Assembly (NCBI GenBank): GCA_019326865.1
Contig: GCA_019326865.1_4101.1
From: a phage
Strand: one strand, 5' to 3'
Length of the DNA: 64,000 nt
Shown: positions 51,882-64,000 of the stretch, piece after piece
Layout: every line of letters begins with the position of its first letter
Position numbering within the stretch: position 1 is the stretch's first letter
Translations under genes and position numbers: made by a program
The notes under the pieces: generated by a model
What the model saw: the letters and a program-made list of their open reading frames with translations, nothing else
Databases searched by the model: none
What the model was told of the DNA's origin: nothing

Positions 51882-51910
51882 GGGTTGACTTAGGTCAGCC
51901 CTTTTTTTAT
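51882..51910 (+). terminator. rho-independent terminator (GGGTTGAC ttag GTCAGCCC + T7)
   Basis: Member of 3-copy terminator family (also 60001, 62796). Confidence 0.7.
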
Positions 51911-58708: not shown

Positions 58709-59068
58709 ATGAATACTTATATAAAATTAATAGCACTTACTTGCTTGTTATTGTCTTTTTTTAGTTACGGTTCGTCATCTGAAACACAATGTCGTAGTAC
58801 TAATGGAACGATGTATTCATTAACTAACGATCCCGGAAATGGTAAAAATATTGTTATCAATGGTGAAACTTATCGTTTTAAAGTGCAAAGCATTATTGGT
58901 AATAAAAAGATAACGACTTATATTAATGATTCTGGGACACTTGCAAATGTTATATTAATTGTTAATCCAAAAACAGGTAGTGGTGATATCTATATAGTAA
59001 TTTATTTAGATTCAGCACAACAACGAGAATTAGATATAGATGAATTAAATCTTCATTGCAAAATATAG
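58709..59068 (+). CDS. secreted protein (signal peptide)
   Basis: 119 aa; N-terminal hydrophobic signal-like segment. Confidence 0.5.
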   Translation: MNTYIKLIALTCLLLSFFSYGSSSETQCRSTNGTMYSLTNDPGNGKNIVINGETYRFKVQSIIGNKKITTYINDSGTLANVILIVNPKTGSGDIYIVIYLDSAQQRELDIDELNLHCKI

Positions 59069-59078
59069 GGTATAAAAT

Positions 59079-59456
59079 ATGATAGATTCTATGGTAATTG
59101 GGTTGATAAGTATTCCATTTATTTTGTCTTTTATAATTTCCATATGCATGATTGTGTATTTTATATTTGCTGGAATGTATTTTGTTTTAACAAACAAGTA
59201 TATTTTCATTTCTAAGCTTGATTCAATATTTGCATGTGAAACTTTAGCTTACAACTTATGGATAATCTGCTCTAGTATTATGGGATTGACTTACCTTTTA
59301 TATAAATTTGATTTTATTAATGCAAATATTGTATATATTAGTGCTGGATTAGCATTATATCCTGCTACATGGTACTTGATTTATGTTGTGGACATATGGT
59401 ATAGTACTTACAAAGAATACCAGTGTAAAAAATCATCAAAAGTTGAGGGGAAATGA
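59079..59456 (+). CDS. integral membrane protein
   Basis: 125 aa; multiple hydrophobic helices. Confidence 0.5.
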   Translation: MIDSMVIGLISIPFILSFIISICMIVYFIFAGMYFVLTNKYIFISKLDSIFACETLAYNLWIICSSIMGLTYLLYKFDFINANIVYISAGLALYPATWYLIYVVDIWYSTYKEYQCKKSSKVEGK

Positions 59457-59809
59457 TTATGAAAATTATCTTGTTTTTTGTATCTATGTTATTATGCGGA
59501 TTTGTATATGCTGAACCACTCGAAGGCTTAGTTTGCACTGACGGACAAATCAAACATATCTATCAAGGTGATAGTTATGATCATGATATTGTTTATATTG
59601 ATGGTCAACAATATAACTTTGTTAAAGAGCATACTATTGGCGACATTAGCTTCAATGAGTTTTCAAACGATGAAGACCCTAACGCATTGGCATTTATGGA
59701 AGTTGATTTGTATGAAGATAGTAATGGTACACAATATGCTAAACTTGTTATGATGCGTCGTGGTGCTAAAGAAACAAGTTTCGGTGGTTTATGTAAATAT
59801 AAGGATTAA
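59453..59809 (+). CDS. secreted protein (signal peptide)
   Basis: 118 aa; MIMKIILFFVSMLLCGFVYA signal-like. Confidence 0.5.
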   Translation: MIMKIILFFVSMLLCGFVYAEPLEGLVCTDGQIKHIYQGDSYDHDIVYIDGQQYNFVKEHTIGDISFNEFSNDEDPNALAFMEVDLYEDSNGTQYAKLVMMRRGAKETSFGGLCKYKD

Positions 59810-59814
59810 TTATT

Positions 59815-60006
59815 ATGCTGATTTATCAATGTGATAATATTCGTGTTCTACAACATCCTTATCTTCAAATCTTTCATGTTCAGATGTTTATGGAAGGTGA
59901 TAATCCGAGAACTTATGAACGCACATATGATTATTTCACGGTCAAAGAGTGCGACAACATCGATGAAGTACGACGATTAGTACATGAACTCCAAAACAAA
60001 GGTTGA
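59815..60006 (+). CDS. hypothetical small protein
   Basis: ORF 63 aa. Confidence 0.45.
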   Translation: MLIYQCDNIRVLQHPYLQIFHVQMFMEGDNPRTYERTYDYFTVKECDNIDEVRRLVHELQNKG

Positions 60007-60025
60007 CTTCGGTCAGCCTTTTTTG
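60001..60025 (+). terminator. rho-independent terminator (GGTTGAC ttcg GTCAGCC + T6)
   Basis: Member of 3-copy UUCG-loop terminator family. Confidence 0.7.
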
Positions 60026-60060
60026 TTATAATTATTTTATATTCTAATGGAGTTTAAATT

Positions 60061-60501
60061 ATGTTAGTATATCGTTTTGAACTTAAATTTAGTTACATTG
60101 AACCTTATTTGAAACCAGCAACAAATGTTGGTCCATTTGCACGGTATTCTTCAAAATACAGTACTAAAAATGGTTTTGACCGTTTGTATATGTCTACGCC
60201 TACTCAGTTCCAACCTGAACCAACTGATGATGGAATCTATTCAATCAAATATGGATGGGCATTTGGCTGTCAAAGTTTGAATGATTTGTTTCGGTTCTTT
60301 ACTATGGACTTGGGTAAATTACATCGTGCTGGGTTTGCTATTTCCGTATATGACGTACCTGATAATCATGTGGATATTGGTCGTAATCAGGTTCAGTACT
60401 ATTGCGGTAGTGCAATATTGGTTCGTATCATGTCAGTTAAGGATGCAAAGGTGGAGTACCGTCAAAGTAAAAGAGTAATACATGAGGTTCTATATGGATA
60501 A
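60061..60501 (+). CDS. hypothetical protein
   Basis: ORF 146 aa. Confidence 0.5.
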   Translation: MLVYRFELKFSYIEPYLKPATNVGPFARYSSKYSTKNGFDRLYMSTPTQFQPEPTDDGIYSIKYGWAFGCQSLNDLFRFFTMDLGKLHRAGFAISVYDVPDNHVDIGRNQVQYYCGSAILVRIMSVKDAKVEYRQSKRVIHEVLYG

Positions 60502-60838
60502 GACACAAATAGAATTGAAAAAATTTGTATCATTCTATCTACCAAATGATCCACGTAATTCACAAAAAGATTTTGAATATTATAATATCCTAAGTAAACA
60601 GTTAATGAGAAAGTTTCAACAGTGTTTAAGTATATTCAATACCGATGGTAGACGTAGATACCGAATCATTTCAATGAATGATGAAAACGCAAACTACTTT
60701 GATTATGATGTTGTTTTTAGAGCATATAATGATGACCGAATTAAATTAAATTATGAACAAATAATATTTGATCTAAGTGCTATATCTGTTATAATTACTC
60801 ACATCGCCGAGATTAATGGTTTTAAAGAGTGGTATTGA
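60482..60838 (+). CDS. hypothetical protein
   Basis: ORF 118 aa. Confidence 0.5.
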   Translation: MRFYMDKTQIELKKFVSFYLPNDPRNSQKDFEYYNILSKQLMRKFQQCLSIFNTDGRRRYRIISMNDENANYFDYDVVFRAYNDDRIKLNYEQIIFDLSAISVIITHIAEINGFKEWY

Positions 60839-60852
60839 ATAGAGGACAATAT

Positions 60853-61119
60853 ATGAAGCTTAAATTGCAATATAATGGATTTACTTTACGTAATGATACT
60901 GAGTTTGTCAATCGTTCACCTGGTGCTGAACTTTTTTTGCGAGAGATGAACATTCCTTTCATTATCACTACTGTAGGGGATCGTGAAGTTTTACAATACG
61001 CAGAGCATCCTATTATTGATGTTCCTTGGTACTCTGAACATATGTACATGGATATGGCACGTCGCTACAACTGTAAGTTCATAGTAGAAGGTGATAAAAT
61101 TACAGTACAATTTAAATGA
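60853..61119 (+). CDS. hypothetical small protein
   Basis: Start ATG 60853 after AGAGGA; 88 aa. Confidence 0.45.
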   Translation: MKLKLQYNGFTLRNDTEFVNRSPGAELFLREMNIPFIITTVGDREVLQYAEHPIIDVPWYSEHMYMDMARRYNCKFIVEGDKITVQFK

Positions 61120-61260
61120 TGTGAATTGAAATGAACATTTAATCATCATTGCAAATGTAGAAATGGTGTACATGAAGTATAATATAAAAAGGGAAATCAT
61201 ATATGGCTTCCCCTTTTTCTTATTACGTACAATTAAGTACATATATTAATTGAGGAAATT

Positions 61261-61833
61261 ATGAATCGTAAAGGTCGTTTTAAGGTATCAAAGAAGAATA
61301 AGAGTTCTAGGTTTAAACCTATAGTGTTAACAGTTAAAGCTAAAGAAAAATTAACTGCACTTAGTAAAAAGATCATTTCATCTAAGATCAAAATATCATA
61401 TATAAATTCAGTAAAATATCAAAATGTCAAACCACGAGATCAACTTATTTCACTTATATTTAAACGTAATGATTTTGAGATATCAGTAGATGATTATAGA
61501 GCCTATAATGCTAGTTTCATTAATGTTACTTGTACTACAGAACTAACTGAATTAGAACATTTGTCATGTATAGTAAATCTCGATAAAGGTGTAGTGAAAT
61601 ACCACTTTGTACATTTTACTAATATTAATGATGGAACGGGTGTACAATCCAGAACTATAGTACCTACATGCGATGTGACTAAATTATCAAAGCTCAATGA
61701 TGAAGAATACTTTCAAGAAAGCATCGTAACTGAACATTTAGATAATATAATAGCTACTTACAAAGAATGTATATGGGTTTTGAATGCTATCAAGCCTAAA
61801 TTGTGTTTAATGAATATTGTTCGTGATTTATGA
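61261..61833 (+). CDS. EExFFQ-motif family protein
   Basis: 190 aa; NDEEYFQESIVTEHLDNI. Confidence 0.55.
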   Translation: MNRKGRFKVSKKNKSSRFKPIVLTVKAKEKLTALSKKIISSKIKISYINSVKYQNVKPRDQLISLIFKRNDFEISVDDYRAYNASFINVTCTTELTELEHLSCIVNLDKGVVKYHFVHFTNINDGTGVQSRTIVPTCDVTKLSKLNDEEYFQESIVTEHLDNIIATYKECIWVLNAIKPKLCLMNIVRDL

Positions 61834-61846
61834 ATGGGGAATTAAA

Positions 61847-62290
61847 ATGGGTTGGGTAAATGTAAATGCTATTGAACTTAACGAACAAGATATTTTTGCA
61901 TTTGTGAATTTGACCAATAATACAGTACTGAAAGGGCGTTTGTTCAGTGCGAGTGATGGATATAAATGGATCTCGTTGATGGATGATTGTGGTGTGATTT
62001 ATAATGTAATGCAATTGCCACAATGGGTATATAGTAATACTTCTGACGATGTTCTTGCCGCTGTTATGCGTGAGTTTGAAAAACTACCAGGTGGTGATAT
62101 GAAAAACAAAATTTTTAATGCAGAACGTCATAATTATACAGCACAGCAATTGGAATCACTTGCCATTGCTGCATATCAAGCTGCTATTAAGAAGCCAGAG
62201 TGTGTTATTCTTAAGTACGTCCCAGACTTAAAACTCACGTTGGAAGATATGGACGCATTCATTTTTACATCTGAACTGGACCAGTACTGA
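61847..62290 (+). CDS. hypothetical protein
   Basis: Start ATG 61847 after GGGGA; 147 aa. Confidence 0.5.
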   Translation: MGWVNVNAIELNEQDIFAFVNLTNNTVLKGRLFSASDGYKWISLMDDCGVIYNVMQLPQWVYSNTSDDVLAAVMREFEKLPGGDMKNKIFNAERHNYTAQQLESLAIAAYQAAIKKPECVILKYVPDLKLTLEDMDAFIFTSELDQY

Positions 62291-62404
62291 TTTAACTTTG
62301 GGACAAACTTTTCTATAATGATATAATTTCCTTGTCAGATTATTTAAATGACATGTTGAAGTATAAATATTATTGTAACGTTATCTCTTATAGGAGTTAT
62401 AAAA

Positions 62405-62788
62405 ATGGTTGATAAATGGAATAAGAAAGATCCATCCCATGATGTTGATATTTCTGGTCTAGATGATGCACATAAGCATAAGTATCTAGATTCACTAGGT
62501 CTTCTCAAACCGGACCAAAGTCTTGCACACGAACGCCCATCACGTGAAAAAGCATTCAGTCTAGAATCACTTGGTCATGAGCTAAATCGTGTGTTTGAAG
62601 AACACCCAATTTATGTACGTGATATTATTGAGAAACTTAAAGTAACTCCTAAAGAGCACTTTAAAGCAACTGTACATTCTGCATTCCGTGCATTGCATGA
62701 TTCTCTCAAGAAAACTCATAATCTTCGTAAAATTCATGATGAAATTGTGAATGCAATCGAAAGTGAAAAGCATAAGTTTAAGAAGTAA
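62405..62788 (+). CDS. hypothetical protein
   Basis: ORF 127 aa. Confidence 0.5.
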   Translation: MVDKWNKKDPSHDVDISGLDDAHKHKYLDSLGLLKPDQSLAHERPSREKAFSLESLGHELNRVFEEHPIYVRDIIEKLKVTPKEHFKATVHSAFRALHDSLKKTHNLRKIHDEIVNAIESEKHKFKK

Positions 62789-62795
62789 TAGAAAT

Positions 62796-62822
62796 GGGGT
62801 TGACTTCGGTCGGCCTTTTTTT
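62796..62822 (+). terminator. rho-independent terminator (GGGGTTGAC ttcg GTCGGCC + T7)
   Basis: Third copy of UUCG-loop terminator family. Confidence 0.7.
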
Positions 62823-62867
62823 ATATAGTAAATATATGAAATAACAAAGATTCAGGGATTATATTTC

Positions 62868-64000
62868 ATGGCTAGTGGGATACGATTAACACAAGAAGAA
62901 GCTGAAAAATTAGTAGCGAATAGATGTTTAGAACAAAATTATACATATAAACCTTTCACTTATATTAACACTAAAACAATATTAGAACTTAAATGTGATA
63001 ACTTTGAACATGAAGAATGGAAATGTAAATTTAGTAAATTCATTTACAAAAGAACTGGGTGTCCAGAATGTAAAGGAAGAAATTCTTTAAAAGAAAAAAC
63101 AGCAAGAACTAAAGTTCATGAAATATGTGAATTAAAAGGATATACTTATGAACCATTTGATTTTAACGGTGCTATAGGAACAAAAATAATAATTCATTGT
63201 GGAGTTGACTCCCATAAACCACATGAAACTAATTATAATTCTTTAGTTAATAAGAAAAATGGATGTATTGAGTGTGGTGGAAAGTTAAAATTAACCCAAC
63301 AACAAGCAGAATTAAATGTAATTAACATATGTAATACTACTGGATATACTTATAAACCTTTTGAATATAAAAATAATAGAACTAAAATTACATTAAAATG
63401 TTGCAATCCAGACCATGATGAATTTAGTTTAAGTTATGATAAATTTGTATATCAAGGTAATGGGTGTGTAAAATGTGGAAATCAATCCACAGCTAGAAAA
63501 CTTTGTCTTTCACAAGATGAATCAATTAAAAGGCTTAATGAAATTTGTACATCTAAAGGATATACTTATAAACCATTTATATATAAAAATGTACATACAT
63601 TAATTACATTAAAATGTTCAGAATGTGAACATCCTGAATGGACAACTCGATATCAAAATATTGTTCAAAAGCAAAGAGGTTGTCCAAGTTGTAGTCGAGG
63701 TGGATATGACCCAAGTAAACCTGGTTATTTTTATATACATCGAGTTCTAGGTAATGGTAGGATATATTATAAATTTGGTATAACAAACAATTATATATAC
63801 AGATTTGAACAATATAATAAGAACTTATTTAGAACTGAAAAATATAAAACATATTACAGTACTGATGGTATTTTAATCAAAGAACTTGAATATTTTATTA
63901 AACATATGAGTGGCATAAAAAGAAAAGTTATTGATAAAATAAATTATTTGGACGGGTATACTGAAACAATCAATGAATCAGAATATGAAAAATTAATAAA
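62868..64000 (+). CDS. protein with four tandem Cys-rich (zinc-ribbon-like) repeats and C-terminal GIY-YIG-like (T5orf172-like) segment; 3'-truncated by window edge
   Basis: ORF open to window end (not in ORF track); repeats each contain GYTY(K/E)PF ... C..(C/H) ... GC.(E/K/S)C; followed by GYFYIHRVLGNGRIYYKFGIT. Confidence 0.6.
   Translation, partial: MASGIRLTQEEAEKLVANRCLEQNYTYKPFTYINTKTILELKCDNFEHEEWKCKFSKFIYKRTGCPECKGRNSLKEKTARTKVHEICELKGYTYEPFDFNGAIGTKIIIHCGVDSHKPHETNYNSLVNKKNGCIECGGKLKLTQQQAELNVINICNTTGYTYKPFEYKNNRTKITLKCCNPDHDEFSLSYDKFVYQGNGCVKCGNQSTARKLCLSQDESIKRLNEICTSKGYTYKPFIYKNVHTLITLKCSECEHPEWTTRYQNIVQKQRGCPSCSRGGYDPSKPGYFYIHRVLGNGRIYYKFGITNNYIYRFEQYNKNLFRTEKYKTYYSTDGILIKELEYFIKHMSGIKRKVIDKINYLDGYTETINESEYEKLI
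62925..63750 (+). repeat. four tandem about 200-215 bp coding repeats inside ORF 62868-end
   Basis: GGATATACTTATAAACC(A/T)TTT recurs at about 63141, 63345, 63561 with similar downstream Cys codon spacing. Confidence 0.6.

Follow-up and report, generated by a model that had tools for sequence, protein, structure and literature searches.

A zinc-finger array joined to a C-terminal GIY-YIG-fold domain in a jumbo coliphage: a probable homing endonuclease gene, apparently of recent insertion

We analysed a stretch of phage DNA of 64,000 nucleotides (the window), at the right-hand end of which lies a gene encoding four predicted zinc-finger modules and then a C-terminal domain assigned to the GIY-YIG superfamily (T5orf172/MUG113 branch). 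The gene has apparently been inserted recently between two genes of a jumbo coliphage, and we regard it as probably an active, free-standing homing endonuclease gene (HEG) of the T5orf172 type, carried by an Asteriusvirus. It behaves as a mobile element: it is present in some phages and absent from others at a precise intergenic site, and a sharp mosaic boundary coincides with it.

Extent and coding features of the gene

The features of the gene as a whole are:

62868..64000, + strand: homing-endonuclease-type ORF, 377 codons within the window, full length 394 aa judged from TH47 and P0001
62854..62858, + strand: Shine-Dalgarno-like AGGGA, 9 nt 5' of the ATG, read from the sequence

The frame is open from the ATG at 62868 through the window end at 64000, and the ORF listing has no competing ORF of more than 60 aa inside these positions on either strand. 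That the ORF runs off the window and is missing from the ORF track was noted in the original prediction, correctly on both points; the list omits ORFs that run off the window, hence the absence. The prediction had also named a downstream frameshift or pseudogene as a possible objection. We recovered the full ORF through the copy in the related genome TH47, which has 394 aa and a normal stop, and looking for a frameshift or pseudogene we found neither; the window copy is therefore short by 17 residues and the stop codon only. The metagenomic protein P0001 is likewise 394 aa long and 96% identical to the TH47 protein. In place of the Shine-Dalgarno-like AGGGA, TH47 and UB have AAGGA at the same stretch.

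The gene is under purifying selection, as shown by a dN/dS of 0.17 against TH47 and 0.25 against RaK2 (overall range 0.17-0.26), with values that in these two comparisons are low in the repeats and in the nuclease domain alike. Its GC content (26-29%) is slightly below that of the flanks (29-36%). A tblastn search with the protein identifies no paralog elsewhere in the 64-kb window, and an Rfam scan of the region detects no RNA family or intron above threshold. One match, to the sRNA PhrS (window 62692-62824, + strand), scores 22.4 bits (E=0.008) and stays below the gathering score of 37. It covers the end of the upstream 127-aa gene with its terminator hairpin, and in all likelihood the hairpin produced it by chance.

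Four zinc-finger modules

The N-terminal part of the protein divides into four modules, for which putative ligands are given from the conserved alignment columns:

62883..63080, + strand: zinc-finger module R1 (aa 6-71), putative ligands C43, H48, C65, C68
63081..63284, + strand: zinc-finger module R2 (aa 72-139), putative ligands C111, H116, C133, C136
63285..63500, + strand: zinc-finger module R3 (aa 140-211), putative ligands C178, H183, C200, C203
63501..63701, + strand: zinc-finger module R4 (aa 212-278), putative ligands C250, H255, C272, C275

Each module has the motif (G/N)YTY(K/E)PF, then a Cys with a His five residues on, then G-C-x-x-C. The original prediction described four modules of about 67-72 aa, all with GYTY(K/E)PF; the number of modules and the motifs stand, with the corrections that R1 begins with N where the other three begin with G (NYTYKPF, GYTYEPF and GYTYKPF twice) and that the lengths are 66, 68, 72 and 67 aa. 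The second motif takes the forms GCPEC, GCIEC, GCVKC and GCPSC in the four modules. At the protein level the modules are 31-46% identical in pairs, with alignment scores 13-27 sd over shuffled controls, and a tblastn search of the protein against its own gene gives an offset match with E=1.8e-23. The further statement that the repeats are evident in the DNA is true of short conserved patches (48 nt at 71-81% among R2-R4, 38 nt at 74% between R3 and R4) and goes no further than these, as the global DNA identity between modules is 54-59% and Tandem Repeats Finder reports no tandem repeat.

The suggestion that these Cys-rich repeats are of a zinc-finger type is borne out by Pfam. The CapR homology domain (PF21817), with a curated cutoff of 24.2 bits, matches four stretches of the protein and scores 58 bits; DUF4379 ("probable treble clef zinc finger") matches with E=4e-10 (40 bits, cutoff 24.5), and DUF723 matches weakly. 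Across 72 aligned repeat modules, taken from the protein and its homologs, the C-x2-C pair never varies and the first Cys is kept in at least 90%. An AlphaFold model of R4 has a pLDDT of 86. Judged by their sequences, the repeats are CapR-type zinc-finger modules, and they presumably bind zinc and DNA.

Variation in repeat number among related phages, which the original prediction thought worth a look, does occur: the homologs found have from 2 to 7 copies. Two further observations concern the array. Six proteins (P0015, P0017, P0018, P0019, P0020 and P0022) have the same zinc-finger array, in 3-7 copies, fused to another kind of C-terminal domain, which has an EYDG...H-type motif and weak similarity to restriction-endonuclease-like families (MTES_1575 at 3e-4, DUF2726 at 4e-3); this suggests that the DNA-binding array is shuffled between nuclease types. 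P0008, of Klebsiella phage KP13-7, has three repeats that lack the Cys ligands (e.g. IIHPKYGEHW...GSGHP), together with a well conserved C-terminal nuclease-like domain; its repeats may be degenerate modules without zinc.

The C-terminal domain

The array is followed directly by:

63702..64000, + strand: predicted nuclease domain with GIY-YIG fold, T5orf172/MUG113 branch (aa 279-377), with its final 17 aa beyond the window; the complete domain has about 116 aa

A likeness of the C-terminal segment to GIY-YIG nucleases and T5orf172-type domains had been proposed from the sequence. This proposal is upheld by the Pfam matches of homologs, by the conserved residues and by the AlphaFold fold, with the qualification that the window's own domain has no Pfam match. 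Searched as the whole protein or as the isolated domain, it gives no match to GIY-YIG, T5orf172 or MUG113 in Pfam, even at E<=10, or in NCBIfam. The TH47 domain has no Pfam match at E<=10 either, and the domain of UB matches MUG113 at 5e-3 and T5orf172 at 0.046, both under the curated cutoffs. When 17 homologous C-terminal domains are scanned singly, T5orf172 (PF10544) is found in 11 (best 1.6e-10), MUG113 (PF13455) in 8 (best 4.4e-13) and, weakly, GIY-YIG (PF01541) in 5 (best 4e-3). Since the window domain has no direct match, the family assignment is transitive, through these homologs, and structural.

In the conserved layout, strand 1 carries a Tyr, strand 2 the K-x-G-I and helix 1 an Arg, and a Glu stands at a distal position. 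The stretch GYFYIHRVLGNGRIYYKFGIT occupies aa 286-306 of the ORF. The eight conserved columns correspond to Y289, K302, G304, I305, R312, E341, G363 and E366, all of which are present in the window. Six of the eight are invariant in all 17 domains; the other two, K302 and E366, are conserved there in at least 90% and are invariant in a 15-sequence alignment. As far as sequence can tell, this is the pattern expected of the T5orf172/MUG113 branch, and the conserved residues probably match the catalytic residues of characterised enzymes.

The AlphaFold model of the P0001 domain (pLDDT 96, pTM 0.89) has a beta-beta-alpha-beta-alpha topology, so that the C-terminal domain is predicted to have the GIY-YIG fold. 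With this model, the top match of a Foldseek search against the PDB is Slx1, at a non-significant E=0.44. A PDB sequence-profile search with the C-terminal alignment was discarded as returning chance matches only (MAPKAP1, E=0.03). An hhalign comparison of the domain profile with the I-TevI catalytic domain finds no similarity (probability 0.1%). None of these three comparisons lends the assignment support. We also considered the canonical I-TevI/Seg-type (PF01541) class and rejected it: the domain is C-terminal rather than N-terminal, and the window protein has no PF01541 match. We conclude that, within the GIY-YIG superfamily, the domain falls in the T5orf172/MUG113 branch, far from sequences of the I-TevI type.

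The wider family is large. The protein falls in the PHROGs group phrog_681, "endonuclease" (E=1e-63), and its tblastn relatives are spread over 661 phage records. A genome often holds several: there are 5 matching places in TH47 and 7 in KP13-7. Its C-terminal 99 aa within the window are enough by themselves to match phage T5 gene T5.141 ("endonuclease", YP_006969.1), which has two CapR repeats and the same C-terminal domain and is colinear with R3-R4 plus the nuclease domain (E=3e-26). In T5, this gene (L008 1084-1836) lies just 3' of a terminator, between tail genes. Pfam run on T5.141 reports the two CapR domains and neither T5orf172 nor MUG113, despite a C-terminus that is clearly homologous. 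This shows that the Pfam T5orf172 model misses the sub-branch to which the ORF belongs, T5's own T5.141 included.

The insertion site

Three features lie between the upstream gene and the ORF:

62796..62827, + strand: intrinsic terminator of the upstream 127-aa gene, from a terminator scan (hairpin 62796-62817 and T-run)
62800..62829, + strand: sigma-70-like promoter candidate TTGACT-18-TATAGT overlapping the terminator, from a consensus scan (10/12 matches)
62828..62837, no strand: left junction of the inserted gene cassette, where similarity to the gene-less UE-S1 stops

The terminator is annotated as such in UE-S1, is conserved in 4/4 aligned phages, and is the last sequence in common with gene-less relatives. 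With UE-S1, the BLAST match stops at 62837, and the alignment splits after TTTTTTTATATA. In UE-S1, about 50 bp separate the terminator from the next structural gene. The right-hand junction, and any co-conversion tract, fall beyond the window end at 64000. We treat the promoter candidate as a lead rather than a finding, because sigma-70-like sites are no commoner in the region than in shuffled sequence.

Two side observations concern the flanks. First, a 26-nt GC-rich hairpin with a T-run (GGGTTGACTTCGGTCrGCC-T7) occurs at 51882-51907, 60000-60025 and 62797-62822, each time intergenic, with none expected by chance; the mobile gene is directly 3' of one of these copies. The hairpin includes the TTGACT hexamer, and at the 62797 copy TATAGT follows 18 nt on, which makes a combined terminator/promoter element possible; the recurrent hairpin may be such an element of this phage group. 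Second, the 127-aa "structural protein" (62405-62788) resembles part (residues ~55-180) of the larger virion structural protein whose gene, in relatives, comes directly downstream of the insertion site (compared genes: L001 6094-7623, L002 4879-6129, L003 5681-7228 and L004 4756-6453). The common region extends over ~110-125 aa with 22-25% identity (E about 1e-7 to 1e-9), so the two genes that flank the site are partial paralogs.

Distribution among relatives and mosaic identity

Matches to the region are with jumbo coliphages of ~350 kb in the genus Asteriusvirus (PBECO4/121Q group). About 30 Asteriusvirus genomes lack the gene at this locus, and their match stops at 62826-62837, right after the terminator. 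Among the matching Asteriusvirus genomes, only TH47 carries the whole gene. UB has, in exactly the spacer from the terminator to the structural gene, a diverged two-repeat version of 257 aa that is ~40% identical. Its R1 is 61% identical to R1 of the window and its R2 looks hybrid; the UB version may have arisen from the four-repeat form by a simple deletion through R2/R4 recombination, a question that an overall identity of ~40% is too low to decide. Klebsiella phage RaK2, of the genus Alcyoneusvirus, has a four-repeat homolog that is 64% identical; it occupies the syntenic site, with the homologous virion structural gene downstream of it. Among IMG/VR viral contigs, an exact-DNA scan and a protein-seeded scan find no further carriers.

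Identity to TH47 is 97-98% over 62800-64000, as against 69-90% over the backbone from 59000 to 62800; a near-identical gene thus sits in two diverged backbones. Over the same backbone, the gene-less UE-S1 is 94-100% identical to the window, except for one 200-nt bin at 89%. The sharpness of this mosaic boundary indicates recent horizontal transfer, and the mosaic identity pattern is the strongest evidence for mobility.

Proposed mechanism and alternative readings

Under the homing reading, each of the four CapR-type modules would contact a short stretch of DNA, and together they would read a long composite site, close to which the tethered GIY-YIG-fold domain would cut. The likely catalytic residues are Tyr289, Arg312 and Glu366; Lys302 and Glu341 are invariant too. 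Where carrier and gene-less phages infect together, the gene-less allele would be cut within or close to the ~50-bp spacer that runs from the terminator of the 127-aa gene to the downstream virion structural gene. Recombinational repair off the gene-carrying genome would then copy the gene, with adjacent markers, into the genome that was cut. Cleavage and its target site, like homing, are inferred.

The presence of the same domains in proteins with other roles raises an alternative, which we consider unlikely, in which the gene is a domesticated, non-homing derivative of a HEG. It could help the phage against rival phages or satellites by attacking specific sequences in them, like ICP1 Odn, or it could bind DNA as a regulator at the adjacent terminator or promoter, like PLE CapR or in the manner of I-TevI autorepression. 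These domain families have been co-opted in such ways elsewhere (PMC10448857, PMC8096241), the gene stands directly after a hairpin found at three intergenic sites in the window, and purifying selection is as much to be expected of a useful gene as of a selfish one. A useful function sits less well with the ~30 close relatives that manage without the gene, and a 98%-identical copy in a ~80%-identical backbone is what mobility predicts; moreover, the nuclease residues are kept here, whereas CapR lost its nuclease domain.

HEGs commonly degenerate once they are fixed, as part of the HEG life cycle. The low score of the window's nuclease domain, under the Pfam thresholds, could likewise be taken as the mark of a locally fixed and decaying HEG, by now an inactive relic. 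This we find improbable, given that all four copies (window, TH47, P0001 and RaK2) have an intact ORF, that dN/dS stays within the range reported above, that all the family-invariant residues are present, and that the gene is sporadic rather than fixed. It is very improbable that the C-terminal domain is no nuclease at all, with the protein a multi-zinc-finger nucleic-acid-binding protein carrying an unrelated alpha/beta domain, a reading favoured by the lack of a direct Pfam, PDB-sequence or I-TevI profile match for the window domain.

Significance

For the preferred reading, an active T5orf172-type homing endonuclease gene, much is already published: the family, the domain order, the variability of the repeats and the place at boundaries of genetic exchange. 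Homologs, too, already bear the label "endonuclease", as T5.141 and RaK2 ORF274 do in RefSeq and phrog_681 does in PHROGs. What the analysis provides is a clean annotation of a gene that has none in TH47 and is called "hypothetical" in many jumbo phages, and a natural example of a sharp mosaic boundary at a HEG in the Asteriusvirus/Alcyoneusvirus group. A further reading, which we hold to be less likely than not, is that the 97-98% identical copies in backbones of only ~80% identity reflect homing that is under way at present, with a defined 50-bp spacer as its target in jumbo phages of E. coli. If so, it would be a tractable natural system in which both the carrier and the gene-less phages can be cultivated, homing by a T5orf172 endonuclease could be demonstrated directly for the first time, and it would open a route to how 2-7 CapR modules specify a DNA site, possibly by a modular, re-programmable code.

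Comparison with known systems

The closest described systems are T5orf172 HEGs with CapR/DUF723 zinc-finger arrays, such as those of Vibrio phage ICP1. CapR is a zinc-finger repressor of a Vibrio phage satellite (PMC8096241) that has been traced to the N-terminal domain of ICP1 homing endonucleases with a C-terminal T5orf172 domain (Netter 2021, PMC8096241). T5orf172 is a GIY-YIG subfamily, and the nuclease activity of Odn depends on a Glu (PMC10448857). CapR/DUF723/DUF4397 zinc fingers are found in 200/229 T5orf172 HEGs, often several per protein as "beads on a string" (Barth 2023, PMC10448857). The repeat number of these HEGs is altered by recombination between repeats, and they lie near structural genes, at boundaries of genetic exchange (PMC10448857). 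A C-terminal nuclease after a repeat array, which the original prediction called atypical, is therefore the standard architecture of the class: an N-terminal CapR array and a C-terminal T5orf172 domain are the normal published layout of T5orf172 HEGs (PMC8096241, PMC10448857), and T5.141 has it too.

Like ICP1 gp165, gp174 and others (PMC10448857; PMC8096241), the ORF joins an N-terminal CapR-type array to a C-terminal T5orf172-branch domain. It also resembles these T5orf172 HEGs in being free-standing, in adjoining structural genes, in its variable repeat number and in its position at a sequence-exchange boundary between related phages. It differs from them in its carrier, an Asteriusvirus jumbo coliphage, in having four repeats, and in a nuclease domain that has diverged to below the Pfam T5orf172 threshold. 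The putative ligands are arranged here as C-x4-H...C-x2-C, whereas CapR is reported as CxxC...CxC.

T5.141 and RaK2 ORF274 ("endonuclease") are direct sequence homologs of the ORF, for neither of which we found a biochemical characterisation in records and literature. Like the ORF, T5.141 stands just after a terminator and between structural genes; unlike it, T5.141 has two repeats. The structure-specific GIY-YIG (URI) nucleases SLX1/HIGLE share with the C-terminal domain a likeness of fold only, at 13-17% identity; unlike the ORF, they are eukaryotic repair nucleases with other partner domains and have no zinc-finger array of this type. I-TevI and the Seg-type enzymes of T4 resemble the ORF in organisation, with a GIY-YIG domain tethered to a separate DNA-binding region that contains a zinc finger, and they too are encoded by selfish mobile genes of a lytic phage.
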